From assembly GCA_031288595.1 (NCBI GenBank), contig JAITRB010000020.1:1-11823 (forward strand): a stretch of DNA of 11,823 bases. Reading direction: 5' to 3'. The position numbers and the translations under genes were made by a program. Below the pieces are notes generated by a model. That model had not been told where the DNA came from and ran no database searches. It saw nothing but the letters and a program-made list of their open reading frames with translations. This DNA comes from Puniceicoccales bacterium. GTDB taxonomy: Bacteria; Verrucomicrobiota; Verrucomicrobiia; Opitutales; JAIRLG01. Below, one piece after another: positions 1-11,823 of the stretch. Numbering within the stretch: the first letter of the stretch is position 1; every line of letters begins with the position of its first letter.

Positions 1-332
1 CTCGATATTCGGGGCTCCCTTGTTAGGAAATTAGTCCTCGCCATCTGTAAACCGAGTAGGTCTCCCCAATACAAGGATATACCAGCAGCTTACCTTCCCC
101 AGTTCGAACTGATGGACTCCCGCGGTTCGACTGCTGCTCCATTCCCTTCCCCATCCCCAGTAGTCGCGGGACAAACGCAGCGCATCCTCGCATAGGCCTT
201 GCAGTCCTCAGGAGAAAGGAGCGCCTACTCCACCGGCGAAGGAGCGTCCAGCAGGCCTGAGAATCAAGGCTTCTCCAATATACACAGGGACGCTAAACGC
301 CACGCAAATGGCGGTACTCTGTCAAAAGTGAG

Positions 333-872
333 TCAATGTCCCAGGGCTATTGGGGGTATTTTCCCGCGTCGTTGGGAGAAAAAGCCGCGGAGAAGGGCAT
401 AGCAGTCTTCGGCGAGGATGCCGCAGCGGACCGAAGGGTGAGGGGGATTCGGGAGATTTCTCAGAGCTAGTCCCTGCGGGAGAGCGGCATTCGGGTCAAG
501 CGGCCGGTGCTCCGGAATACCGAAGATGATGGCATCGACCCGCGACAGGCGTGCCGCGGCGGCACACATCGGACAGGGTTCCTTGGTGCTGTAGAGCATG
601 CAGCCGTTCAGGCGCCAGCCACCCAGTGCCCGCGCGGCCTGGGACAGCACCAGCATCTCCGCGTGCGCCGTTGCCTCCTGCCTGGCCTCGATGCGGTTAT
701 GGGCGGCAGCGATGATCCGACGGTCATACACGACGACGGCCCCGACCGGTACCTCGTCCTCTTCCCAGGCGCGGATGCCTTCGTTATAGGCCATGGCCAT
801 GAAGAACGCATCGTCTTTCGGCTGCGGCGAGGGATATTTGCGGCCAAAAGGGCAGTTCAGGCGCATTCCCAT
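333..872 (-). CDS. tadA: tRNA-specific adenosine deaminase (TadA, CDA-fold zinc deaminase)
   Basis: 179-aa track ORF. It carries the deaminase zinc motifs H-A-E ('EATAHAEMLVL') and P-C-x-x-C ('KEPCPMCAAAARLS'), and its size is typical of TadA. The ATG at 872 has AAGGAG about 9 nt upstream on the minus strand (read from 873-890). An internal ATG at 800 is a possible alternative start. Confidence 0.88.
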   Translation of the reverse strand: MGMRLNCPFGRKYPSPQPKDDAFFMAMAYNEGIRAWEEDEVPVGAVVVYDRRIIAAAHNRIEARQEATAHAEMLVLSQAARALGGWRLNGCMLYSTKEPCPMCAAAARLSRVDAIIFGIPEHRPLDPNAALPQGLALRNLPNPPHPSVRCGILAEDCYALLRGFFSQRRGKIPPIALGH

Positions 873-1067
873 GAATGATGCTCCTTCCGCGAGCTCAGCG
901 CAAGGTTCTTTCCATTCAGGATGGAAAATTCCGCCGAAGCCAAGCGCGGGTCAGCGGAGTTCCAATCGTCCTCAATTTCCACTCGCCATGGGCGTACGCT
1001 GAAGGGAGCGGAGAACCGGCCCGTTTCCGGGAAATGGGTCAACCGGCATACTCTCGTCTGGGCTCGG

Positions 1068-1442
1068 CTACTGCTGGCAGCAGCGGATCCGCACGATGCG
1101 GCGGCACCCAGGCATCCGGTGCAGCTGTTCCAAGACTTCGGCCAAGCGCAGGCTCAGGGCGTGACGAGCGACGCTGTTCAGGACATCCACCAGCAGCACA
1201 TCGTCCCGAATGACCTTGCGAGGATGGCAGTACTGGGCCAGCGCGGGACCCACGATTTCCGGCCAGCGGCGCGCGATCCGCTCCTCCAGGCGCAGCAGTG
1301 CTTCTGGCAGATTTTTTTTCAGCCAGCGTTCCATGGTATCACCCATCGGCTTGGCCGCCAGATCTTTGCCCACATTGCCATTGGTCGGCAGACCGCGCAG
1401 AGCGGCGATCAGGTTCTCGACGCGGCGGGGGAAGCTCGCCAT
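1068..1442 (-). CDS. DUF721 / DciA-like protein
   Basis: 124-aa ORF. The segment 'RWPEIVGPALAQYCHPRKVIRDDVLLVDVLNSVARHALSLRLAEVLEQL' fits the DUF721 pattern as I recall it (W..IVG..A.H..P......L.V.V.....A..L). The ATG at 1440-1442 lies 3 nt after the stop (1446-1448) of the upstream gene, which suggests translational coupling. Confidence 0.65.
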   Translation of the reverse strand: MASFPRRVENLIAALRGLPTNGNVGKDLAAKPMGDTMERWLKKNLPEALLRLEERIARRWPEIVGPALAQYCHPRKVIRDDVLLVDVLNSVARHALSLRLAEVLEQLHRMPGCRRIVRIRCCQQ

Positions 1443-1445
1443 AGG

Positions 1446-4229
1446 CTAGAAATCGTAGGGGACCATTCCCTTCCGCAGGCCGGCCATCGCCGCATCCAGC
1501 GAGCCGAGGGAAATCGTTTCCTGGAAGGTATCGGCCAGAGGGGCCAGTTTCAGCCCATGTAGGGTCTTGAGACCGTATTCCCAGGCCCGCTGGTAGAGCG
1601 AGGACAATGCCGCCATATTGGGCCGGTCCAGATAGAGCTCTAGGGTCTGGGATTGGTCGATCCATCGCTGTCGCACAGCCGCTGCCTGAAGCAGGGATTC
1701 CGCATCGAGTTCGAAGGCCGTTCGGGCGACGGCCCGTACCGTTTCCGGCCAATCAGCCGAGAGCAGTGCCATGGACTGCCCACTGCAGAGCTTTTGGTAG
1801 AACTCCGCCGTCCAGACGCCCGCGCTGCGGAGATAGTGGACGAAGGCATGCTTGGGAAAGAGCTCCGGCTCTTCCCGATTTTCGGGAGAACTCGGCGGAT
1901 GCAGCTGCCACGTCGCCGGCAACATGCCGGGGGAACAGCCCATCAGTCGGGCGGCGGATTCGATCGCCGGAAGGGCCAGGAGATAGGCATGGCGCAGGCC
2001 ATAGTTCAGCAGGCGCTGACGCAGGGGCTCCCAGTCGAGCGAGGGCGTTCTCATCTCTCGATGCCTGTCCTCCTTCGCCGTTCCACCTGCCCGCAGCGTC
2101 CGGCTGTGACACTCCCAGGGAAATTTTCCCTGTGCCCAGAGCGAATGCCCAAAGCACGGGTAGCGACCCTTCTCCTGGGCCAGGTCGATGGAGACCTCAA
2201 TCACGTCGTAGGAAAAAACCTCCATGCATTCGTCCTGAAAGGCAAGAGAAGCGGGAGCGTCGAAGGCCAGTTGTTTTTGCCACAGCGCCTCCTGCAGGCC
2301 GACGAGTCCCAGGGCGATGGGCCGATAGCACAGCGTCAATGCCTCCGCGGCCGGAGAAGGATAGGGCTTGGCGTCGAGCATCGCGTCCAGCGCCCGTACA
2401 GCCAGGCGCACGCTCCGCCGCAGCTGGGCTCGATCGAGGGTGCCCTGCGCGTCCAGATGTCGCGGTAGGGAGAGAACGGCGATGGGACAGCCCAGCGAGG
2501 CCTCTGGCTCCGACCGCAGGAGCAGTTCCGAATCCACGCCGCTGCTGTGGAGCAAGCCCTCCGGCGCGAGCATGTGGTCCCCGTTACAGCGATCCTTGAA
2601 GGCGAGCCGCGGGATTCCATTTTCGTAGATACGGGCAAGGATCTTTCCCCAGAGAGCGGCTGCCGGCAGGCTTCGGCCCCAGCAGCGTCCCGCACGCGCC
2701 TCCTGCTCTTGAGCCTCGTAGGCACTTTCAAAGGCCTCGCCATACAGGGTCTGCAGCTGGCGCACCTCTTCCACACGAAACAGCATCCATTCCCCTTCGG
2801 CCTGCACCCGCTTCAGGAAGAGATCGGGAATCCAGAGCTCCGTGGCGAGGGAGGAACTCGTGGCCCGCGCCCCCGACTGCCGGAAGTCGATGAAGTCCTC
2901 GATGTCTGCATGCCACAGTTCTAGCGCAGCCTTGCCACAGAGCTTCGGGTTCTCGCCGATGGCCGGTCGGGCGAGGGCGAGCTGGTGCTGGTGCAGTTCC
3001 AGAAATGGCATCACCCCAGCACTGCGCTGCCGCGTGCCCCGAATCGGGCTGCCAGCTCCCCGCACCGATGTCCAGGAACCGCTCAGCGACGCGCCCCACT
3101 TGACCGCCAGCGCATTGTCCGCGATACCCTGGGCCATGATGCTCTCCAGGTCATCCCGCAATTGGTAGACATAGGCGGAAAGGAGATGGGCCTTCGGCGT
3201 ACCTGCGTAGCTCAGCACCGTAGGGGCGACACAGAAGCGCCGGTCTTTGAGCAACTCGTAGAGCTCGATCACCTGCTCCTCGTGAGGCGAGGAGTTCTCG
3301 TGTAAAAATATCCCCATCGCCACCCGCATCCACAGGAACTGCGGCAGTTCGTCGACCTCGCCGCTCTCCCAGTCTCTCAGGAGGAAGTTCTCCAGCAATT
3401 CCTGTGTTGCCAGGCCATCCCAGCGCTCGTCGGCCCCCACATCCAGCGCTTCGGCCAAACGTCTCAGGTCCCAATCCAGCATGCGGGAATGCAGAATGCC
3501 CCTCTCGACGGCCCGCTGGATATGGCGCGGAAATGCTTCCCGATAGGCCTGTTCCAGGAGCTCCGGAGCGGCCGGTTCCCAGGCCAGGAAGCGCGAGTAG
3601 AGGAAGCTCCAGCGGAAGCGCGCCGCGAAGAAGTCAAACTCAGGCGCGACGGCAACCAGGCCCCGTGCCCCTCGGTTCAAGTGGACTTCCAGATCCGACT
3701 GCTCGATCTCTCCCTCGAGCTGCTGGCCCAGGCGCTGGGCAATCTCCGTTGGCGAAAGGGAAAGATCGAGCCCACGGGAGGCAAAGGCGATCCGCGGCAG
3801 CAGCTCCCCGATCGTCCACAGATGACTCTGGCCATCCGATTCCTTCACCAGCAAAAAACTCTCCTGGGCCGACATTGCCGACTTTGCCTTCTGGCCGCGC
3901 AGCTGCGCGTGCTCAGAGCGGTAGAGGATATAGGCCTCGGCGACCTTAAAATGCCCGCGGCGCATCAGCTCCTCCTGGACCATGTCCTGCACGCGTTCCA
4001 GTGCGATGCTGGGAACGCCAAGGGCGATGACCCGACGGGTGACGGTCTGGGCGATCTCGCGCGCTGAGGGGAAGGATTCCTGGTGCTGGGCGGCAAAGGC
4101 CTCGCTCACGGCCTTTTCGATCCTCTTGGCATTCCAGGCGACCTCCTCACCATCGCGCCGGATGAAGCGCGGGGCCTGGGAATTTGGAGACCAATTGTGG
4201 ATATTACCGGGAATAGCAGCGTAACTCAT
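1446..4229 (-). CDS. Ribonucleotide reductase large (alpha) subunit homolog, class I-like, with an N-terminal ATP-cone; catalytic residues substituted (probably non-catalytic)
   Basis: 927-aa ORF. ATP-cone: 'RFIRRDGEEVAWNAKRIEKAV...VQDMVQEELMRRGHFKVAEAYILYRSEHAQLR'. RNR alpha signature blocks: 'APTVLSYAGT', 'ELWHADIEDFIDFRQ', 'ELWIPDLFLKRVQAEGEWMLF', 'AFKDRCNG', 'YRPIALGLVGLQEAL', 'AWEYGLKTL'. ATG at 4227-4229. See findings for the active-site substitutions. Confidence 0.9.
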   Translation of the reverse strand: MSYAAIPGNIHNWSPNSQAPRFIRRDGEEVAWNAKRIEKAVSEAFAAQHQESFPSAREIAQTVTRRVIALGVPSIALERVQDMVQEELMRRGHFKVAEAYILYRSEHAQLRGQKAKSAMSAQESFLLVKESDGQSHLWTIGELLPRIAFASRGLDLSLSPTEIAQRLGQQLEGEIEQSDLEVHLNRGARGLVAVAPEFDFFAARFRWSFLYSRFLAWEPAAPELLEQAYREAFPRHIQRAVERGILHSRMLDWDLRRLAEALDVGADERWDGLATQELLENFLLRDWESGEVDELPQFLWMRVAMGIFLHENSSPHEEQVIELYELLKDRRFCVAPTVLSYAGTPKAHLLSAYVYQLRDDLESIMAQGIADNALAVKWGASLSGSWTSVRGAGSPIRGTRQRSAGVMPFLELHQHQLALARPAIGENPKLCGKAALELWHADIEDFIDFRQSGARATSSSLATELWIPDLFLKRVQAEGEWMLFRVEEVRQLQTLYGEAFESAYEAQEQEARAGRCWGRSLPAAALWGKILARIYENGIPRLAFKDRCNGDHMLAPEGLLHSSGVDSELLLRSEPEASLGCPIAVLSLPRHLDAQGTLDRAQLRRSVRLAVRALDAMLDAKPYPSPAAEALTLCYRPIALGLVGLQEALWQKQLAFDAPASLAFQDECMEVFSYDVIEVSIDLAQEKGRYPCFGHSLWAQGKFPWECHSRTLRAGGTAKEDRHREMRTPSLDWEPLRQRLLNYGLRHAYLLALPAIESAARLMGCSPGMLPATWQLHPPSSPENREEPELFPKHAFVHYLRSAGVWTAEFYQKLCSGQSMALLSADWPETVRAVARTAFELDAESLLQAAAVRQRWIDQSQTLELYLDRPNMAALSSLYQRAWEYGLKTLHGLKLAPLADTFQETISLGSLDAAMAGLRKGMVPYDF

Positions 4230-4485
4230 GGTGACTTGCGATATCCTTCATTAAATCACAAACCCCCAGAAAATTCAAGCTAAAACCATTGTGGAAGCCG
4301 TTTGTTCGGACGGAATCCACCCATCCAACCCTGCCCGAAGTAACTCGGTTCTGAGGGATGAAACCCCTCCATCGAGCGGAATATCCGCTCATCGGATTGG
4401 CGCTTTCGATCTCATGATCCCTCCGGAAGCCCCAGAGGAAACGCGCCGATCCGAGCCTCTCCTTCCCGCGTCGGTTCATCCTTCC

Positions 4486-4590
4486 CGCGCGATGGCCAGG
4501 CACAGCCCCCTTCTGGAAGAAGGGGGCTGTGCCTTGGGCGCCGGCGCTCCGCGCCAGCGCCGACTTTGCTCTGCAAAGGGCCATCGCGCG
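4486..4590. repeat. Cloverleaf-like composite palindromic intergenic element, copy A
   Basis: A 12-bp closing stem (CGCGCGATGGCC 4486-4497 / GGCCATCGCGCG 4579-4590) encloses three hairpins. Hairpin 1 is 4498-4534 (16-bp stem). Hairpin 2 is 4537-4561 (5+5 bp, C.A mismatch, TCC loop). Hairpin 3 is 4564-4578 (CTTTGC-tct-GCAAAG). It is related to the element at 7864-7984. Confidence 0.7.
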
Positions 4591-4623
4591 CGGCTCTAGA
4601 CCTCAGAAATTCCCAGGGTCCCT

Positions 4624-5436
4624 TCAGAGCTGAGTGCCCTCAGAGCGATGTTCAAGATCCTCATTCGGCCGAGGCGGAAGGGCCTGGGTCCCCTCCGACT
4701 GATAGTAATAGCCAACACCGTGCACCGTCCGGAGCTGATCCGTGGAACAGCCCTGCTGCTGGAAGAGCCGGCGAACGTGCATGATATACTGATCGAGAGA
4801 ACGACCTCTCGGGTTCGCAAAGCGTCCCCAAACGCCGCGGATCAGCTGACTTCGGGGCAATACGACGTTGGAATTATGCGACAGATAGGCTATGAGGCCG
4901 AAGATGCGTTTCCCGACGCACATGGGACCATCTGGGAACTGAAGCTCCATCTCCCCTGGTATGACCCGCACGCTGCAAAAGAAGAATTCGTCCTCGAGAA
5001 AGGACACACCCGAAGGCGCATCTTCCGATGCGCTCGTCGTCCGCCGGAGAACAGCATTCACTCGGGACAGAAGCTCAGCCAAACTGAAGGGCTTAGTCAG
5101 ATAGTCATCGCCGCCCATATCGAGGCTCTGCACCTTCGTCCGCTCATCTGTCTCTCCGGTCACGAAAATCGTCGGGACTGCAATTCTCTGCTCCTGCAGG
5201 CGCTTGAAGAGCAGCAGGCCGTTGCTATCGGGCAGGTTCAGGTCCAGCAGGAGGAGATGCGCACCGACCTTGGGCTGTTGGAAAAATTCCACTACTCCCC
5301 CGCCTTGGGAAAAGACCACGGCGCTCATGCCGATCAGCTCCAGCTGTTGCTTCACCACCCGAGCCAAAGGCGCATCATCCTCCACAATGACGACCTTCGG
5401 CTTGGCCAACAAACCCATAGACGATGAATGAGACAA
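4624..5436 (-). CDS. OmpR/PhoB-family response regulator (REC domain plus winged-helix DNA-binding domain)
   Basis: REC hallmarks: 'VVIVEDD', acceptor Asp in 'LLLLDLNLPD', 'IFVTGE', 'YLTKPF'. The C-terminal trans_reg_C-like segment ends in 'LRTVHGVGYYY'. The track start at 5436 is TTG, with AAGGGA 6-7 nt upstream. The ATG at 5418 ('MGLLAKPKVVIVEDD') is an alternative start. Confidence 0.85.
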   Translation of the reverse strand: MSHSSSMGLLAKPKVVIVEDDAPLARVVKQQLELIGMSAVVFSQGGGVVEFFQQPKVGAHLLLLDLNLPDSNGLLLFKRLQEQRIAVPTIFVTGETDERTKVQSLDMGGDDYLTKPFSLAELLSRVNAVLRRTTSASEDAPSGVSFLEDEFFFCSVRVIPGEMELQFPDGPMCVGKRIFGLIAYLSHNSNVVLPRSQLIRGVWGRFANPRGRSLDQYIMHVRRLFQQQGCSTDQLRTVHGVGYYYQSEGTQALPPRPNEDLEHRSEGTQL

Positions 5437-5520
5437 AACTTTCCCTTCTCGGACTGAAGGGAGAACAGGAAATGGGAATATCCCTCTGCGGCCAAGCTCT
5501 ATGCGCCGCGAGGAAAATTT

Positions 5521-6162
5521 TTACAGCATTTTGACTTCCGGAGAGACACCCGAGCGGTGAATCGCCGGTACGAGCCAGGAGGCCATGCCGGCCGCACTGG
5601 CCGCCTGAATGCCGAAAGAACTGTCCTCCAGCACCAGGCAGTGCCCGGGAAAAACCCCCAGTCTTTCCGCCGCCAGCAGAAAGAGATCCGGTGCCGGCTT
5701 TGTGTGCGCCACCTCTTCGCAGGTGACGATGACCGGGAAATAAGACTTGAGTTTCGTCCCTTCCAGGGATTGGTGGACGAATTCCCGATAACCGCCGGAG
5801 GCCACCGCCAGAGGCTTAGCGATCTTCCGACACTGTTCGGCGAACTGGACGACTGGCCGTACCGCCACAACATCCCCGATGTGCGCGGAGATGAAGTCCC
5901 GCTGGTAGCGCAGCAGAGTCTCCTCGTCGATCGATTCTCCAGTGCTGGCACAAATTTCGTCCAAGGTCACTTCCGTCCGCTGCCCCCCTCGTTCGCAGAA
6001 ATAATCCCAGCGGAATTCGTACTTCGCCCCGTAGCGCTTCAGGGAATCGAGCCAGGCGTGGTAGAATAGTGGCATTGTGTCGACCAGAGTTCCGTCACAG
6101 TCGAAGATGATGGCGTCGAACCCAGAGGGATCGGGAAAGACCATCACAGGAAATTCAGACAC
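5521..6162 (-). CDS. HAD-superfamily hydrolase, subfamily IA (phosphatase / beta-phosphoglucomutase-like)
   Basis: HAD motif I 'IIFDCDGTLVDT', motif II 'AVASGG', motif III Lys in 'HTKPAPDLF', motif IV 'LVLEDSSFGIQAA'. The track start at 6162 is GTG. The ATG at 6144 is an alternative start. Confidence 0.85.
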   Translation of the reverse strand: MSEFPVMVFPDPSGFDAIIFDCDGTLVDTMPLFYHAWLDSLKRYGAKYEFRWDYFCERGGQRTEVTLDEICASTGESIDEETLLRYQRDFISAHIGDVVAVRPVVQFAEQCRKIAKPLAVASGGYREFVHQSLEGTKLKSYFPVIVTCEEVAHTKPAPDLFLLAAERLGVFPGHCLVLEDSSFGIQAASAAGMASWLVPAIHRSGVSPEVKML

Positions 6163-6200
6163 GCTGCCCTGTTCTAAGATTTTCCGCTCATACGCAATAC

Positions 6201-6231
6201 AAAACGGCCCGAATGGCTGAACTTCAGGCCG
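6201..6231 (-). terminator. Possible intrinsic terminator downstream of the translocase gene
   Basis: On the minus strand, CGGCC (6231-6227) pairs with GGCCG (6209-6205) around an inner TGA-agt-TCA hairpin. TTTTGTATT follows (plus-strand AAAA at 6201-6204). The stem is short and the loop long, so support is weak. Confidence 0.3.
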
Positions 6232-6267
6232 AATAACCCTAGGGCAGGAGAGGTGATGCGGCTATTT

Positions 6268-7785
6268 CTAGGTATCCGTTTCGCCTGCCACGGCCCTCGC
6301 CTGCTCGACTCGCACGCTCAGCTTCTTGACCGAAAAGAGCCAGAAGCCACAGACCAGGACGAAGATCAGAAAGGAATAGGGGGCGATGAGGAAGTAGGAG
6401 GCATTGGGCACCAACACCAGCAGTGCGGCCTGAATCCAGGCCCCTCCGGCTTTGCCCAGGCGGCCACCGACCACATCGACCACCGCCTTGCCCTTCACCT
6501 TCATCTCCTCGTTCAGCGGGATATAGGCCATCTCCTTCGTCAGGTCGAAGAGCGCGTACTTCGTCGACTTGCAGATGATCAGGATCACCGTACCCAGGAT
6601 GACGGCGGCGAAGAGCGGCGTCAGGCCGATCGTACCCAAAACAGGGGCCAGGCTTTCGCGGAAGAGCACGAAGATGAAGAACAAGCTGCCGAGCAGAAGG
6701 ATGATCGCGGGCGTGATGGCCGCCGCGATCAACCAGCGGAACAGGCGCAAGACATTTCCCCCCACGATCATCATGATCATCGAGACGACTCCCGTCCAAA
6801 AGGTATACCAGCTCATATAGGTATTGAACGCATTGGGACTGCCGCAGTGCATGCCCACTTGCTTCTTCCAAAGAACCTCAATGAGATTGACACTGGTGCC
6901 GTAGCAGATGATCAGGGATGCGATGAACAGCAGGTACGGAGAGGTGAAGATCGTCATCAGGCTCTGCAAAAACGGCGTTTTCTTTTTCTTCTTCGACACC
7001 CCAGGAAGCTCGGGCTTGTCGTAGAAGCGCTTATCAGTCAGGATATGGCGATAGATCCAGCGATAAATCAGCATGGTTGCAACGCCGGACAGGACAACGA
7101 AGCCCATCAGCCAGTGGAGCGAGACCTGCCAACGATCGACTCCTGGGCTCTCGGGGATGTTGGAAAATCTTTCCCCGAACCAGCCGGAGAACAGCAGGGC
7201 CAGCTGAGCCACCAGGCCGAAAAAGGCATAAACCCGTTTCGACTCCGAGGTTTTGGTCACCTGGTTGGCGAACTGCCAGAAGGAAAGGGAGAGGATCGCG
7301 CTTCCCCATATCTCGGCGAGGATGTAAAAAAGCGCATACGACCAGATACCGACGATGGCCAATGGCCACTTGAGAAAACCAGGAGCGGCGGCCTGCCAGG
7401 CCCGAACGGTCTCCTGAGCCGGATGCAGGAGGTCCAGATGGGGATAGATCAGGAAGGCGAAGGCGCCGAAGAAGATGATGAAGGGCGAGAGCGTGGCATA
7501 GAACAGATGCTCATTGCTCAGGAGATCGCTCGCCTTCGTGTAGAGCAGCATGAAGATGATGGCTGACGGCATGACGCAGAAGCCCTTCAGGAAAGGGATC
7601 ACCTCCGCATCGGAACCCGGGCCGGTCACCACCAGGGCATCCTTGATGTTCCGCAGACAGGAGTAGTTGAAGAGGATGAAGAAGAAGATCAGGCTCATGG
7701 GGATGACCTTTTTCAGCTCATAGGTGTGGAGCGGAAAGAACATCCTGCGCCACCTGCCGAATTGCGATGCTGCTACTTCTGTCAT
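6268..7785 (-). CDS. tlc: ADP/ATP (nucleotide) translocase, TLC/NTT family
   Basis: 505-aa polytopic membrane protein. The N-terminus 'FGRWRRMFFPLHTYELKKVIPMSLIFFFILFNYSCLRNIKDALVVTG' matches the conserved start of Chlamydia/Rickettsia Npt/Tlc transporters as I recall them. Many hydrophobic segments and a 'KKKKK' loop are present. ATG at 7783-7785. Confidence 0.88.
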   Translation of the reverse strand: MTEVAASQFGRWRRMFFPLHTYELKKVIPMSLIFFFILFNYSCLRNIKDALVVTGPGSDAEVIPFLKGFCVMPSAIIFMLLYTKASDLLSNEHLFYATLSPFIIFFGAFAFLIYPHLDLLHPAQETVRAWQAAAPGFLKWPLAIVGIWSYALFYILAEIWGSAILSLSFWQFANQVTKTSESKRVYAFFGLVAQLALLFSGWFGERFSNIPESPGVDRWQVSLHWLMGFVVLSGVATMLIYRWIYRHILTDKRFYDKPELPGVSKKKKKTPFLQSLMTIFTSPYLLFIASLIICYGTSVNLIEVLWKKQVGMHCGSPNAFNTYMSWYTFWTGVVSMIMMIVGGNVLRLFRWLIAAAITPAIILLLGSLFFIFVLFRESLAPVLGTIGLTPLFAAVILGTVILIICKSTKYALFDLTKEMAYIPLNEEMKVKGKAVVDVVGGRLGKAGGAWIQAALLVLVPNASYFLIAPYSFLIFVLVCGFWLFSVKKLSVRVEQARAVAGETDT

Positions 7786-7863
7786 GATGATCGTTGTCTA
7801 AGGTGAAACCTGCCTCTAGCTGAAACCGCTTTCCGCAAGCAAAGCAAGCTTTTTCTCCTCGCG

Positions 7864-7984
7864 TGGTGCGATGGCCCGTCGCCAGCTGCGCGGCTCCGCC
7901 GCACAGCTGGCGACCCCGGGCTGGCACCCGCTCTGCAGAGCGGGTGCCAGCCCTTCTTTGCTCTGCAAAGAGGCCATCGCACCA
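7864..7984. repeat. Cloverleaf-like composite palindromic intergenic element, copy B
   Basis: A 12-13-bp closing stem (GGTGCGATGGCC 7865-7876 / GGCCATCGCACC 7972-7983) encloses three hairpins. Hairpin 1 is 7878-7914 (11 bp, C.A mismatch, 5 bp, TCC loop). Hairpin 2 is 7918-7953 (perfect palindrome of about 16 bp). Hairpin 3 is 7956-7970 (CTTTGC-tct-GCAAAG). It shares the third hairpin and the stem core with copy A. Confidence 0.7.
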
Positions 7985-8139
7985 AAGAGAATCACCCCAT
8001 CTTAGTATTTCTATGCTAGGGAATCCCCTTGCCCTGCCAACTGGGCCCCGGGGGAGAAGAGTAGGATTGGTCCCCCGGAGCTGAAACACAGGAGACGCAC
8101 GAGCGCGCCGGCCCTTAGAATCCAGGGTGGACGATTTTC

Positions 8140-8931
8140 TCAAGCCCCGTCGCACGGATAGAAGGGCAAGAGCTTCGTCCCGAAAATGCCATGGGCCCGA
8201 AGAAATGCATCTCGGCTCTCCGGGGATAGCTTTCCCCACTGCTTTTGGAGCGAAGGAGGCAGCAGAACCACATGAATGGCCAGCCATTGGGGCTCATCTG
8301 CCAGGTTCAGATCTCCCTCCGCCCAGGCCCGCCAGGAGAAGAATTCGGGAAAATCCCCATACCGGAGGAGATTGCCAGCCGATGACAGATCGCCCTCGGC
8401 GGCATACTGGATCCGCCAGGAGACGATCCGGTCGGCGAAGAGGGTCTCTGGCAAAATGCCCGGCGTCGCCGCCGGCCCAGGAAACATCTTGCGGAACGAG
8501 GGATAGACCTTGCTGCCCAGGCTGAAGGAATCGCAGAGTGCCATTGACTCCTCCGAATGCCTCGACAACCCGGAACGGTACACGGCCTGACTCCCGGGAA
8601 AAGCTTCCTCTCGGGCCCACAGGACATAGGCCATCTGTCCGCTCTCGTTCCGGCTGGACAGGATCAGGTGCGTACCGCTGCCCAAGATTTGGAGATCTCC
8701 CTCGACACGATCGAGGCGGCAGGCAAGGCGAGCCCAATCCTCCTGGATTCTCCAGAAGAGGCGTTCTTTTTCCTCCACCAGCCGCAGCTTCTCCTGAAGC
8801 CGGGACCATCGGCCAGCCATGCGGGCCCAGGGAGGCAGGACAAGGACAACAAGTATGAGCAGGAGGGTACTCACCATCAGCAGTTCCAGAAGCGAAAACC
8901 CTTCCTGGGGTCTATGTTTCAAGGAAAACAT
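8140..8931 (-). CDS. Prepilin-type N-terminal cleavage/methylation domain protein (pseudopilin-like, type II secretion / type IV pilus family)
   Basis: 263-aa ORF. The N-terminus 'HRPQEGFSLLELLMVSTLLLILVVLVL' gives the G|F-S-L-x-E motif followed by a hydrophobic helix. I do not recognise the rest of the protein. ATG at 8929-8931. Confidence 0.7.
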   Translation of the reverse strand: MFSLKHRPQEGFSLLELLMVSTLLLILVVLVLPPWARMAGRWSRLQEKLRLVEEKERLFWRIQEDWARLACRLDRVEGDLQILGSGTHLILSSRNESGQMAYVLWAREEAFPGSQAVYRSGLSRHSEESMALCDSFSLGSKVYPSFRKMFPGPAATPGILPETLFADRIVSWRIQYAAEGDLSSAGNLLRYGDFPEFFSWRAWAEGDLNLADEPQWLAIHVVLLPPSLQKQWGKLSPESRDAFLRAHGIFGTKLLPFYPCDGA

Positions 8932-9055
8932 GAAAGGACAAAAGAATCTCCCTTCCGCCGAAAGGCATGGAGCTGAAAATAAATCTCCGATCCCATCGAA
9001 CTCCCTGCGGGAGCTAGGGTTAATCTTAGCGAAAATCCATCCCTGTGTCTCGCCT

Positions 9056-9088
9056 AAAAATGAAGAGAGGGAAATCCAAGATTTCCCT
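9056..9088 (-). terminator. Probable intrinsic terminator downstream of mip
   Basis: A 9-bp stem, AGGGAAATC (9068-9076) / GATTTCCCT (9080-9088), has a 3-nt loop and lies 45 nt after the stop at 9133. On the minus strand it is followed by CTCTTCATTTTT (plus-strand A5 at 9056-9060). Confidence 0.4.
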
Positions 9089-9132
9089 CCCCGGGTGTGA
9101 GAAATTTTGCCCTCGAACCCCTACTTAGAGAC

Positions 9133-10188
9133 CTATAGCTCCTCTAGAGCCTCATCGGAGTCCGAGAAGTTCGGGAAAATCTCCTCATCGGAGGATGAGC
9201 TTTCTTGAAATTCAAGCGAAGAACTGGATTCCGATTTGCCCTCTTTTTTACCCGATGCTCCTTTATCACTTCCCGATTCCTTCAGGGCCGTCTGGAGAGC
9301 CTCCAGGTCGAACTTCGGCTTCGGTGCGTTTTTGCAATCGATCAGTTCCACTTCGAAGCACAGCAGCGAGCCCGCCGGAATCTTCGGCAAATCATGATCT
9401 CCATAGCCCAGGTCGGACGGGATCCACAGCTTCACGACTCCGCCCTTGGCCACCAGTGGCACTCCTTCGCTGAAACCAGGGATCACATCCCCCAGCAGGA
9501 AGGAAGCCGGATCTCGCCCCTTGGAGCTGTCGAACACCGTCCCATCGATGAGTGCTCCGCTGTAGTGGATCGTTACCTCGTGCTCCAGGCCTGGGTGCTC
9601 CCCTTCGCCCGCCTTGACGATCTTGTAGCGCAGGCCACTATCCGTCTTTTTGACCATCGGATCTTTGTCCAGGTTTTTGAGAAAATCCTCCGCCTTTTTC
9701 TTGTTTTCCGCTGCTGTTCTTTTCATCTCCTCTTCTCGAATCTTGGCCTGGGCCTCGGCCTTTTGGCGGAAGTATGGCATCGCCTCCCTCATCGCCTCTT
9801 CCTCTACTTCGCCCCCCTCGGCAACCCCTTCCAGTACGCACTTAATGCACTCCGGGGACAGCCCCAGCTCCTCAAGTCCCGCCTGTTTTCGAAGCATCCG
9901 ACCCAGGGTCCTGCAGTATCGGCATTCCTCTTCCTTCGTGAAAACCTTGGGCTTTGGAGCTTCCTGCTCGCCGTCAGAAGGGACCTCTGGCTTCACCGCA
10001 GCGGGCTTCGGAGCCTCGGAAGCCGGTGATGCTTTCGGCTTGTCGGCGCTTGCTTCCTGTGGCTTCACCGTTGAGATATGGGCGCTCGATGGCGTTACGA
10101 CCCCATGCTTCTTGCCCGGCCCAGCGGCGGCCAGAACAACACTCGTCCCACAGCACAGGGAGATCAAAACAACCCATTTCTTTTCCAT
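9133..10188 (-). CDS. mip: FKBP-type peptidyl-prolyl cis-trans isomerase, Mip-like, with signal peptide
   Basis: 351 aa. The hydrophobic N-terminus is 'MEKKWVVLISLCCGTSVVLAAAG'. The FKBP domain is 'VTIHYSGALIDGTVFDSS...FLLGDVIPGFSEGVPLV..GGVVKLWIPSDLGYG...IPAGSLLCFEVELID'. A helical FKBP_N-like region lies upstream of it. The ATG at 10186-10188 has AAGGA about 9 nt upstream. Confidence 0.9.
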   Translation of the reverse strand: MEKKWVVLISLCCGTSVVLAAAGPGKKHGVVTPSSAHISTVKPQEASADKPKASPASEAPKPAAVKPEVPSDGEQEAPKPKVFTKEEECRYCRTLGRMLRKQAGLEELGLSPECIKCVLEGVAEGGEVEEEAMREAMPYFRQKAEAQAKIREEEMKRTAAENKKKAEDFLKNLDKDPMVKKTDSGLRYKIVKAGEGEHPGLEHEVTIHYSGALIDGTVFDSSKGRDPASFLLGDVIPGFSEGVPLVAKGGVVKLWIPSDLGYGDHDLPKIPAGSLLCFEVELIDCKNAPKPKFDLEALQTALKESGSDKGASGKKEGKSESSSSLEFQESSSSDEEIFPNFSDSDEALEEL

Positions 10189-10309
10189 AGCAAGGATCCT
10201 TTATTGTGAAATTTACCGGCAGGTAAAGAAAAAAGAAGGGCGAGTTCTTCCAAAGCTCAGTTTCCCCTGAGTTACGAATGCGATCGGAACGAATTTCCGC
10301 CCCAAAACC

Positions 10310-10477
10310 CTAGGGAGTCGGCAGGGTCAGCGGCTCCATGCGGGCCAAAATTTCCGCCACCTGGAGCTCCGCCTCCGGTGTCATCTGCCCACTGCTCCGA
10401 ATCTGCTCCACGCCCCTTTTAAATTCCTCGACACCCTGACGTACCTTAGCCCGGGCCTTAAGTTCTTCCCTCGTCAT
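10310..10477 (-). CDS. Small hypothetical protein (55 aa, predicted helical); not in the supplied ORF track
   Basis: Hand translation: MTREELKARAKVRQGVEEFKRGVEQIRSSGQMTPEAELQVAEILARMEPLTLPTP*. The ATG at 10475-10477 has AAGGA about 10 nt upstream (minus strand 'gaaaggatgagataagATG'). It lies 51 nt downstream of the preceding ORF. No homology was recognised. Confidence 0.4.
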   Translation of the reverse strand: MTREELKARAKVRQGVEEFKRGVEQIRSSGQMTPEAELQVAEILARMEPLTLPTP

Positions 10478-10528
10478 CTTATCTCATCCTTTCTATCCAT
10501 ATCCTTGTTTTACCAGACCTATGAGCCC

Positions 10529-11014
10529 CTATAAATCCCGCACCGGCGCAGGATCTGCAGGGACCAGAGGAATGTCCGATATCGTCGAGGTTTCTGATCC
10601 CCGATCAGGTCCTCCCATCGCACCGACAGATCCCCCTATTCCTTGGCTAATTGCCCCCGAAACGCGTCGTCCCACGGCAATGCCCAGTTCTCTCACGCCC
10701 CCAGTCACTGCAGCAGCATCTCTGAGGGCATTCTTAAGCGCCTCCGCTAGGGTCCGCAGGATGGGAGAAAAAACCTTCTCCCTGAGCCAAGTCAAGGCCG
10801 ACTTAAGTGTATCTAAAAACTTCTGAGCTGCTGTTGTCTTCACCTCTCCTGTGACTCCCGCTGCACCGGCCTGTACCGCTGAAGAAGCTTCTCCCATCTG
10901 CCCAGCCAATCGAGAATTCTCTCCTCCACTCGCAACTTCGCCAGGATTCTCAGGAATGCCCTCATCCCAGCTCGTTCTGGAAACCGATATCCCGTCTCCC
11001 ACTCTATCTCCCAT
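10529..11014 (-). CDS. Hypothetical protein (161 aa; disordered acidic/Gly N-terminus, amphipathic central helix, glycine-zipper-like C-terminal segment)
   Basis: The ATG at 11012-11014 has a strong SD (minus strand 'agaGGAGGgtgttggtATG'). The segment 'GRRVSGAISQGIGGSVGAMGG' has a small-xxx-small/GxxxG pattern. No family was recognised. Confidence 0.6.
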   Translation of the reverse strand: MGDRVGDGISVSRTSWDEGIPENPGEVASGGENSRLAGQMGEASSAVQAGAAGVTGEVKTTAAQKFLDTLKSALTWLREKVFSPILRTLAEALKNALRDAAAVTGGVRELGIAVGRRVSGAISQGIGGSVGAMGGPDRGSETSTISDIPLVPADPAPVRDL

Positions 11015-11059
11015 ACCAACACCCTCCTCTCTTAAGTTTAAACCTTAAGTACTAGCTTA

Positions 11060-11087
11060 AGTTTACAGATCACGAGATGATCGTCAA
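11060..11087 (-). promoter_or_regulatory. Candidate sigma70-type promoter for the 10529-11014 gene
   Basis: The minus strand reads TTGACG (11087-11082), a 16-nt spacer, then TAAACT (11065-11060), about 45 nt upstream of the ATG at 11014. This rests on a consensus match only. Confidence 0.3.
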
Positions 11088-11111
11088 GCTCCAATACACA
11101 TCCCATGTCCC

Positions 11112-11189
<78 letters not shown>

Positions 11190-11280
11190 CATTGTTCCAA
11201 TGGTGATGGATCGGCGAATTCTTGGCAAGTGCATTCTGGAGCGCCGGTGGGCTCATCCCCAGCGGCGCAAGCCTATCCTA

Positions 11281-11580
11281 CTATTCACAGCCTGTTCACA
11301 ATTTCTCCGCCCGCCGACATCCTCATAATAAGGTATAGTAATTCTTAGTATTCTTATTATGCTCTGTGGATTTCTGAACAAGTGCGATCGAGCTAGTATT
11401 TAGGCTCTTTCCCAGAATTTTGGGCTATGAATAGCTTTGGGAATAAGCTGTGAATGAAAAAGAATATCTCTCCTCCCCGGTGGACTTATTCACAGTTATT
11501 CACGGCTTATTCTTGGGTTATTCACAGGTGTCTGTGAATGGAGAGGGCGCATTTTCAGCGAGATCTGGCTTTGTGAATTG
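11281..11580. other. Candidate chromosomal replication origin (oriC): DnaA-box-like cluster plus AT-rich unwinding element
   Basis: TTATTCACA occurs at 11486-11494 and 11518-11526, a perfect fit to TTATNCACA. Near-matches are TTATTCACG (11496-11504), TTATTCTTG (11507-11515) and CTATTCACA (11281-11289). Reverse-oriented TGTGAAT cores lie at 11449, 11533 and 11572. The heptamer ATTCACA/TGTGAAT occurs 6 times in 300 bp. An AT-rich block lies at 11321-11361. Confidence 0.55.
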
Positions 11581-11706
11581 TTTTTCTCGCGTGCTGTGAG
11601 GATCCCGCTCTGCATGCCATGCTGCCCCTGCCGGCGGTCTTTGCAGCTCTGGCAGGTTTTTCGCTTAAAATCCCCTAGGGAAAACGGGGCTTGTCTGGTA
11701 GCCGAC

Positions 11707-11823
11707 TTATCGGCGCGTCCGCCGAAAGATGTATTCCTGACAGAAGAAGTAGCCGGAGCCAGCGATGAGGCCGCCCAGGTGGGCAGAGTGCGCGATAAGG
11801 TCGCGTCCCGGAAGCTCGAGGAG
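11707..11823 (-). CDS. Rhomboid-family intramembrane serine protease, C-terminal fragment (gene continues beyond the window)
   Basis: Hand translation of the minus strand from 11823: LLELPGRDLIAHSAHLGGLIAGSGYFFCQEYIFRRTRR*. 'AHSAHLGGLIAG' matches the rhomboid catalytic-His TM motif (AH.AHLGG...G). The stop TAA is at 11707-11709. Confidence 0.6.
   Translation of the reverse strand, partial: LLELPGRDLIAHSAHLGGLIAGSGYFFCQEYIFRRTRR

Follow-up and report, generated by a model that had tools for sequence, protein, structure and literature searches.

A nested-palindrome repeat upstream of a TLC ATP/ADP translocase gene as one copy of a dispersed, probably mobile repeat family in termite-gut Puniceicoccales

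What is the role, if any, of an almost fully base-paired palindromic element of about 120 nucleotides (nt) that lies between a pseudopilin gene and the gene of a TLC-type ATP/ADP translocase in a Puniceicoccales bacterium? The question is raised by positions 7864–7984 of the 11,823-nt stretch analyzed here (contig JAITRB010000020.1 of assembly GCA_031288595.1, positions 1 to 11,823 of the forward strand; hereafter the window). An earlier note on this DNA had offered four options, namely an element resembling repetitive extragenic palindromic (REP) sequences or bacterial interspersed mosaic elements (BIMEs), a miniature mobile element, a structured RNA, or a protein-binding insulator, the first two of which are supported by the multicopy, covarying family described below. 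We favor, with a probability of roughly 0.6, the reading that the element is one copy of a lineage-restricted, dispersed, noncoding family of nested-palindrome repeats, comparable to REPs, BIMEs, and miniature inverted-repeat transposable elements (MITEs), in TLC-carrying Puniceicoccales of termite guts. The family is dispersed and probably mobile: it is multicopy, noncoding, and indifferent to its genomic context, it has been gained or lost between close relatives, it has duplicated recently, and it clusters with sister families of the same design.

The element in question (copy 1) consists of a closing helix of 13 base pairs (bp) without mismatch, which encloses three consecutive hairpins, H1, H2, and H3 (Table 1). 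H1 has 16 pairs, a TCC loop, and a single C/A mismatch. Minimum-free-energy folding yields exactly this four-way junction with either RNA or DNA parameters, and for RNA on either strand, with energies of −110.1 kcal/mol (RNA, + strand), −114.6 kcal/mol (RNA, − strand), and −66.7 kcal/mol (DNA). The corresponding z-scores are −12.2, −11.7, and −12.4, and 0 of 200 dinucleotide shuffles fold into a structure as stable as the native one. The closing helix around three hairpins that the earlier note had described is thus borne out by the sequence, by the minimum-free-energy fold, and by z-scores of about −12, as is the perfect palindrome that it had seen in H2, and the distances it had given hold within one base (78–79 nt to the translocase ATG at 7785, and 155–156 nt from the pseudopilin stop at 8140).

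The search for further copies covered one genome per species with the pattern CTTTGC-NNN-GCAAAG-N(0-3)-GGCCATCGC, and returned 21 loci, 16 of them from three Puniceicoccales metagenome-assembled genomes (MAGs; Pcl387_bin38, Pcl387_bin136, and Ct408_bin121), while the remaining five lack the 5′ arm and look like chance matches. The Pcl387 MAG set derives from the guts of lower termites (bioRxiv 10.1101/2025.08.05.668610). Loci are referred to below by L numbers where they need to be told apart. In total, we obtained 18 complete copies (two in the window, the rest in the three MAGs) and four partial ones, which are located at contig ends (L002 and L008), at the end of a fetched locus (L019), and on a metagenome contig on which the copy is interrupted by Ns (L142). 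All 18 complete copies fold as a closing helix with exactly three hairpins. When a covariance model of the closing helix and H3 was searched against ~200 kb from a few incomplete genomes, the same 18 complete and four partial copies were recovered, and no divergent ones. The copy on L142 was reached independently of the search pattern, as its contig was fetched through a TLC homologue. The earlier note had proposed a search for the shared core, and had named a lack of further copies as an outcome that would speak against its reading; what was found is a family of 22.

The family consensus reads (T-run)-GGC-GCGATGGCC-H1-H2-CTTTGC-NNN-GCAAAG-G-GGCCATCGC-GCC-(A-run), with copies of 105–132 nt including 8-nt flanks, or ~100–125 nt between the ends of the closing helix. 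The termini comprise a 9-bp invariant core and, in 17 of the 18 complete copies, 2–7 further perfectly paired bp (none in L005). The stem of H3 is identical in sequence in all copies while its 3-nt loop varies, although the search pattern itself accounts for part of the conservation seen in H3 and the 3′ arm, a bias from which the 5′ arm and the L142 copy are free. The linkers at the junction amount to 0–4 variable nt, and the loops are almost always of 3 nt, mostly G[AG]A or its complement T[CT]C; that of H3 is pyrimidine-rich in one orientation in 14 of 18 copies. A T-run precedes and an A-run follows the closing helix on both strands, such that the relation between the flanks is inverted, not direct, and inspection of the boundaries of the 18 copies for a target-site duplication, as the earlier note had recommended, revealed none.

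The second element in the window, at 4486–4590 (copy 2), is a genuine member of this family, which folds into the same four-way junction (−90.5 and −94.3 kcal/mol, z of about −9). The suggestion that it is a rearranged version of copy 1 is ruled out by the hairpin order, which is the same in copy 2, in its orthologue in L018, and in all 18 complete copies; the order is unchanged and the arms have diverged.

We found no description of such elements in the literature searched, and no match to Rfam 15 at E ≤ 1 on either strand of 7864–7984 or 4486–4590, and the family is, as far as these searches extend, previously undescribed. ARAGORN predicts no tRNA or tmRNA at either window copy, and a scan of viral contigs gave 0 matches. 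A metagenome scan was performed with a pattern of the closing arms only (GCGCGATGGCC N70-100 GGCCATCGCGC), and among the 120 matches listed none has H3 or a branched fold, most of them being chance matches in GC-rich coding DNA (for example, in the ‘VAIARA’ motif of ABC transporters), alongside a few unrelated long single hairpins. Three metagenome contigs carry near-perfect single hairpins with arms of 50–55 bp (L028, 785–901; L103, 2108–2224; L082, 67–180) that start with the same GCGCGATGGCC(T)TCAC termini, with those of L028 and L103 being variants of one sequence; these may represent a related single-hairpin repeat or fold-back assembly chimeras. We also considered two established identities. 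An intrinsic terminator in the usual sense is ruled out by the T-run before and the A-run after the closing helix on both strands, and the sole terminator-like call inside the element is H2 on the + strand, antisense to all window genes. An integron attC site (R″/R′ of RYYYAAC/GTTRRRY, in a single imperfect hairpin) is likewise rejected, given the termini GCGATGGCC/GGCCATCGC, the branched fold, and neighbors that are housekeeping genes and not cassettes.

The pairing of the arms is maintained across copies despite extensive sequence change. MAFFT failed to align the variable arms, and the shuffle-based covariation test was therefore restricted to the closing helix and H3, with the H1 and H2 arms compared by script for their pairing within and between copies. 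In the closing helix, three pairs outside the invariant core covary (CG/GC/UA and similar), with a covariation score of 0.139 compared to 0.069 in shuffles (0 of 500 shuffles as high), and 87% of positions are paired, a value that drops to ~40% once the partner is slid by one to three columns. Over ten contiguous positions from the helix base, pairing within a copy reaches 95.6% in H1 and 94.4% in H2, whereas the 5′ arm of one copy matched to the 3′ arm of another is paired at 52% and 46%, respectively, and three to five pair types occur at most depths. The test of covariation across copies that the earlier note had called for therefore yields a strong signal, both in the closing helix and in the contrast of within- and between-copy pairing in H1 and H2.

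The same holds for copies that have remained in place, as the fold is kept in three syntenic orthologous pairs (L001/L013, L005/L007, and L018/window copy 2). Five of the 12 H1 pairs differ on both sides between L005 and L007 and none on one side only, and three of the four pairs of the closing-helix extension differ on both sides between L001 and L013, with the caveat that some double-change counts in these comparisons are inflated by register shifts. Orthologous copies also show symmetric one-pair indels, as well as complementary loops (TCC in one and GGA in the other, in both H1 and H2, for L018 and window copy 2). Mismatches compatible with G·U pairing number 22 on one strand and 11 on the other, an asymmetry that is only weak. 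An A × C mismatch recurs at the fifth pair of H1 in L003 (both copies), L005, L006, L007, and L019 (928–1054); it corresponds to G·U on the opposite strand, is kept between L005 and L007 while the neighboring pairs covary, and may be a recognition feature.

Comparison of syntenic loci illustrates the gain and loss of copies. The window is syntenic with L018 across the ribonucleotide reductase (RNR) region, with copy 2 in both. In L143 (a JGI contig with a TLC translocase 79% identical to that of the window), the order FKBP, pseudopilin, TLC, HAD, response regulator, RNR is intact and both window copies are absent, and in L142 (TLC 84% identical) a copy lies downstream of the TLC gene and none upstream. 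L006 similarly lacks, in the orthologous region, the L019 copy between nusA and a gene of the major facilitator superfamily (MFS). A block directly downstream of copy 1 in the window, GAAAAAGCTTGC...GCGGAAA...TTTCAG, is common to the TLC upstream regions of the window, L142, and L143, and because all three share this block, copy 1 looks like an insertion just upstream of it. Duplication is seen at different loci of one MAG, where the L006 and L007 copies share 42 of 45 pairs, and in the two L003 copies (L003a and L003b), which have an identical H1 and an unrelated H2. About 30 nt beyond the 3′ closing arm are also shared between L006 (4020–4058) and L007 (7160–7201), with the pattern CTGGAATTTC..GA..AAGAGGA.G.T, which the orthologue L005 lacks; judging from this match, the duplicated unit in the genome of L006 and L007 may be longer than the palindrome.

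The placement of the copies shows no functional theme. Flanking genes are unrelated in function (TLC, RNR, SerRS, GlgB, PriA, NusA, MFS, rhomboid, and MatE), and the intergenic settings are tandem, convergent, and divergent. Most copies lie 12–75 nt downstream of a stop codon, and their orientation relative to the nearest upstream gene is split 7 to 3, which is not significant; two copies are in divergent regions and two are ambiguous. The contig boundary falls within such an element in three cases, L002 and L008 with copies of the present family, and L142, at its start, with an element of a sister family (fam2). In L020, the priA open reading frame (ORF; 2016–4514, + strand) has no stop before 4514 and reads through the element at 4144–4255. 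The PriA_C domain of its product ends at residue 692, the element covers approximately residues 710–747, and the ORF extends to 832 residues; insertion of the element may have moved the stop codon and lengthened the C terminus, or the MAG may contain a frameshift.

A sliding fold scan of the Puniceicoccales loci showed that the same genomes contain at least three other families, distinct in sequence, that are built alike, with a closing helix and exactly three hairpins (Table 1). Their closing helices are GGCGCTGTCTTTG...CAAAGACAGCGCC, CCGCCTTTG...CAAAGGCGG, and GCGCCCCGGGAT...ATCCCGGGGCGC. Short triloop hairpins such as GGCCCGC-NNN-GCGGGCC are common to them, and a copy of the GCGATGGCC family is often found in the intergenic region that they occupy. 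The more distant Puniceicoccales loci L148 and L149 (40% GC) carry clusters of GC-rich triloop hairpins with no enclosing closing helix, and no such clusters are found in the L143 and L144 loci.

Taking these observations together, we can outline how a repeat family of this kind might behave. Copies would spread, or would once have spread, via a trans-acting enzyme that recognizes the folded single-stranded form, and mobilization would resemble that of the IS200/IS605 type or of REP-associated tyrosine transposases (RAYTs), without target-site duplication. With ~95 nt between them, the closing arms can pair only in a single-stranded nucleic acid, so that the selected form would be single-stranded DNA or RNA. 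Arm-to-arm copying (template switching), gene conversion among copies, or a combination of the two would keep the arms of resident copies perfect. As far as can be judged from sequence, DNA-level dynamics are suggested by the lack of target-site duplication, the purely Watson–Crick stems, loops that are 3 nt long and can be flipped, and indels that are symmetric. Copy 1 would then have been inserted after the end of the pseudopilin gene and ahead of the conserved TLC upstream region, and any effect on the flanking genes, for example through a very stable RNA structure in read-through or 5′-untranslated region (UTR) transcripts, would be a byproduct.

We note that several points weigh against the interpretation as a mobile repeat. 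No transposase or parent insertion sequence with matching ends was seen in the fetched loci, whole MAGs having been outside the search, and no RAYT was identified, with no RAYT-directed scan of the MAGs having been made. As there is neither a target-site duplication nor a precisely defined empty site, the choice of insertion rather than deletion rests on parsimony. The family counts just 22 copies from a few incomplete genomes, with a conserved core that is partly an effect of ascertainment. Furthermore, perfect pairing with many double and almost no single changes in orthologues that have stayed in place is not predicted by selfish decay alone, and could equally mean selection for a host function at each locus, while the G·U asymmetry (22 compared to 11) and the H3 loop bias (14 of 18) are weak hints of a strand-specific constraint at the RNA level.

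These latter points would be accommodated if the element were a structured RNA module of benefit to the host, its fold being kept by selection at each locus, which is co-transcribed and protects the upstream mRNA from 3′ exonucleases, serves as a site for RNase III or other processing, or acts as an insulator, as has been proposed for REPs and BIMEs. We consider this rather unlikely; in its favor are the position of most copies 3′ of a stop codon, the fold kept by compensated changes at orthologous sites, an excess of G·U-compatible mismatches on what is the gene-sense strand for both window copies, the strand bias of the H3 loop, the agreement of gene-sense and element strand in seven of ten assignable loci, and a closing helix that would need a single-stranded form. 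However, the resulting 7 to 3 split is not significant, two copies (L011 and L019) lie in divergent promoter regions, and close, fully syntenic relatives lack the element at the same gene junctions. There is no U-tract after the structure on either strand, the T-run before and A-run after it being the reverse of a terminator, and the near-pure Watson–Crick stems, 3-nt loops, and symmetric two-arm indels resemble the dynamics of DNA palindromes and not RNA evolution through wobble intermediates. It is distinctly unlikely, in our estimation, that the four-way junction itself is the selected unit, which would imply a junction-specific trans-acting factor. Such a factor would be suggested by the closing helix with exactly three hairpins that at least four sequence-unrelated families keep, and by the compensated substitutions and symmetric indels through which orthologues retain the fold; it could be a new structure-guided transposase or recombinase acting on folded single-stranded DNA, or the junction could act as host RNA-processing ‘punctuation’, akin to tRNA-like t-elements, in Verrucomicrobiota of an intracellular type. 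The strictness of this design across at least four families, the invariant core sequence, and a placement independent of orientation would also fit a site that acts in DNA, with the junction or its extruded hairpins bound by HU, IHF, gyrase, or a Holliday-junction or replication-restart protein, and with a role in nucleoid organization or supercoiling as reported for BIMEs. The loop triplets G[AG]A/T[CT]C, which we take to be of the GNA type that forms very stable triloops in DNA, can be counted toward the same idea. Nevertheless, we regard a DNA-level site as improbable: no candidate protein was identified, arms 95 nt apart are unable to pair in duplex DNA, and the absence of the element from close relatives argues against an essential architectural role.

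The remaining explanations are far weaker. That the element is a cis-regulatory leader (riboswitch, attenuator, or thermosensor) controlling the TLC transporter might be suspected from its position 79 nt upstream of the ATG, and a sigma-70-like site farther upstream (8040–8013, − strand) would place copy 1 in the 5′ UTR. This is highly improbable and largely refuted by comparative data, because the same element flanks unrelated genes, and because it is missing upstream of two syntenic TLC orthologues (84% and 79% identity), where the block just downstream of it in the window is nonetheless retained; in addition, almost all bases are paired and the linkers consist of 0–4 variable nt, which leaves no ligand pocket, and there is no Rfam match. 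A functional link to the transporter is accordingly unlikely, with L142 and L143 having no element upstream of the TLC gene, and we consider, from sequence comparison, that the position of copy 1 is incidental and that it is very unlikely to be a transporter-specific regulator. An independent family of small-RNA genes, or a tRNA-like or ribozyme element, is just as difficult to sustain. A four-way junction is a common RNA architecture, and the family is multicopy and covarying, but neither strand gives a tRNA or Rfam match at E < 1, conserved unpaired nt from which a catalytic or binding core might be built are lacking, the copies have no conserved promoter or terminator beside them, and they occur in both orientations relative to neighboring genes. 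Finally, a chance palindrome or an assembly artifact could be invoked given that the genome is GC-rich, that metagenome assemblies can make fold-back chimeras, and that several unrelated long perfect hairpins surfaced in the metagenome scan. This explanation, whose probability is practically negligible, is refuted by recurrence: the architecture is found in five independent assemblies (the window contig, the three MAGs, and the L142 metagenome contig), orthologous copies are syntenic, and 0 of 200 shuffles fold as well.

All genes of the window are on the − strand (Table 1). The start of the TLC gene is placed at 7743 (491 amino acids) in the database gene call, while the alignment of orthologous upstream regions favors the ATG at 7785 (505 amino acids). 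The block GAAAAAGCTTGCTTTGCTTGCGGAAAGCGGTTTCAGCT at 7810–7852 (− strand), directly downstream of copy 1 and ~25–65 nt upstream of this ATG, is conserved ahead of the TLC genes of L142 and L143, where no element is present, and is a candidate for a promoter or other control site of the TLC gene. Between the pseudopilin stop and copy 1 lie two consensus matches, a sigma-70-like site (TTGGCA-16-TAGCAT, at 8040–8013 on the − strand) and a weak terminator-like hairpin (8109–8094, − strand); if the former is a real promoter, copy 1 would sit in the 5′ UTR of the TLC transcript. In L144, a relative of 33% GC, a canonical intrinsic terminator stands after the TLC gene, and beyond it lies ~1.1 kb of AT-rich noncoding DNA with apparently reiterated segments (6826–7934). 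At the other end of the window, positions 11573–11702 are syntenic with L011 3548–3724, where a four-way element of the GCGCCCCGGGAT family is located between tRNA-Glu and a rhomboid gene; the window segment is of similar length and contains no clean nested palindrome, and may be a decayed or a different element.

Table 1. Coordinates of the two window copies and their parts, of the window genes, and of sister-family elements and hairpin clusters in related loci. Positions refer to the window unless a locus is named.
Feature	Position	Strand	Description
Copy 1, whole four-way-junction repeat	7864–7984	+ (order of parts)	Closing arm, H1, H2, H3, closing arm; from the fold; covariance model 89.1 bits
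Copy 1 closing helix, 5′ arm	7864–7876		TGGTGCGATGGCC; core GCGATGGCC family-invariant, outer 3–4 bp covary
Copy 1 hairpin H1	7878–7914		GTCGCCAGCTGcGCGGC-TCC-GCCGCaCAGCTGGCGAC
Copy 1 hairpin H2	7918–7953		Perfect 18+18 palindrome
Copy 1 hairpin H3	7955–7971		CTTTGC-TCT-GCAAAG at 7956–7970, plus one extra T-A pair
Copy 1 closing helix, 3′ arm	7972–7984		GGCCATCGCACCA
Copy 2, whole element	4486–4590		Between response-regulator stop (4624) and RNR start (4229); orthologue in L018; covariance model 67.2 bits
Copy 2 closing helix, 5′ arm	4486–4497		CGCGCGATGGCC
Copy 2 hairpin H1	4498–4534		Perfect 17-bp stem, GGA loop
Copy 2 hairpin H2	4537–4561		GGCGCcGGCGC-TCC-GCGCCaGCGCC
Copy 2 hairpin H3	4564–4578		CTTTGC-TCT-GCAAAG
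Copy 2 closing helix, 3′ arm	4579–4590		GGCCATCGCGCG
Deaminase	333–872	−	
Class I/II RNR large subunit	1446–4229	−	
Response regulator	4624–5436	−	
HAD hydrolase	5521–6162	−	
TLC ATP/ADP translocase	6268–7785	−	
Prepilin-type N-methyl protein (pseudopilin)	8140–8931	−	
FKBP isomerase	9133–10188	−	
tRNA-Glu	11112–11189		Sole tRNA of the window (ARAGORN)
Sister-family elements	L002 3361–3490; L003 3136–3265, 4936–5065; L017 2911–3040; L019 751–880; L004 3256–3385		
Sister-family elements (further)	L006 466–595; L014 6286–6415; L016 5671–5800; L020 601–730; L011 3556–3685; L142 1–100		
Triloop-hairpin clusters	L149 11121–11250, 12561–12910; L148 14361–14490		For example, CCAGGGGAT...ATCCCCTGG; CCCGCGGC-TTC-GCCGCGGG

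If the interpretation as a mobile repeat is correct, these elements form a superfamily of small repeats, hitherto undescribed, in uncultured termite-gut Verrucomicrobiota of a clade that carries the ATP/ADP translocase, and would add to the pattern of palindromic-repeat accumulation in bacteria with an intracellular-type lifestyle. The element appears to have no bearing on the regulation of the transporter. In practical terms, such elements break metagenome assemblies, yield spurious calls of small ORFs, and can lengthen real ones (as perhaps in the case of priA in L020). Furthermore, the combination of fixed ends with fast-evolving, perfectly compensated arms provides a clean natural system in which selection, be it for mobility or for RNA function, can be set against mutational arm-to-arm copying.

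Among known repeats, the closest resemblance in habit is to REPs and BIMEs, which are likewise GC-rich, extragenic, multicopy hairpins, found mostly downstream of genes in both orientations, without target-site duplication, and clustered with other repeats. The element differs from a REP in being a closed composite of ~100–125 nt with exactly three hairpins, compared to the single 20–40-bp hairpin of a REP, and in having long arms that are specific to each copy and not a family-wide consensus. Tagged REPs are characterized by an unpaired GTAG/CGTC tag, an 8–9-bp stem, a 4–5-nt loop, and a short tail (PMC3733652), whereas the loops here are of 3 nt, and the GTAG/CGTC at the base of some H1 copies is paired, forms part of the stem, and is not conserved. 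Branched composites are not without precedent, as the GTAG-15 and CGTC-1 REP dimers of A. variabilis and H. neapolitanus, respectively, are enclosed in a larger palindrome and are also branched (Di Nocera et al. 2013, PMC3733652). In contrast to BIMEs, in which conserved linker motifs lie between tandem REPs of alternating orientation, self-complementary hairpins are here contained within one closing inverted repeat, with variable linkers.

The resemblance to MITEs that form long hairpins, such as the Correia elements of Neisseria and the enterobacterial repetitive intergenic consensus (ERIC; also known as intergenic repeat unit, IRU) sequences (see also PMC3184786), lies in the terminal inverted repeats, the length of 100–150 bp, the lack of coding capacity, the presence/absence polymorphism between relatives, the strong RNA fold, and co-transcription with neighboring genes, which is putative for the element described here. 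In keeping with a MITE, the element is small and noncoding, has 22 copies, and is absent from L143, L142, and L006 at orthologous sites. It departs from MITEs in lacking a target-site duplication, in forming a four-way junction instead of one long imperfect hairpin, and in having a hypervariable interior between fixed ends and a fixed H3. In the Bacillus cereus group, compensatory changes maintain the predicted cruciform-like fold of the bcr1 repeat, which has been shown to be transcribed and has 5-bp direct repeats on its flanks (PMC3184786). This repeat shares with our element the character of a mobile-like repeat of ~100–155 bp with a nonconserved genomic distribution and a branched fold with compensatory changes; however, no direct repeats are present here, and the copies are uniformly near-perfect, whereas the stability of the bcr1 structure varies between strains. 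The host phyla are also unrelated, and a relationship in sequence is not to be expected.

Finally, the Rickettsia palindromic elements (RPEs) provide a parallel in that palindromic repeats have proliferated in bacteria with an intracellular-type gene set, including the TLC translocase, and the L020 copy read through by the priA ORF is reminiscent of the insertion of RPEs in coding regions. The present copies are otherwise intergenic, in contrast to RPEs, in-frame coding insertion is not general among them, and both architecture and sequence differ. Because the element departs from tagged REPs, BIMEs, and classical MITEs in the features that define each of these, we assign it to none of the named families, and place it with the small palindromic repeats.

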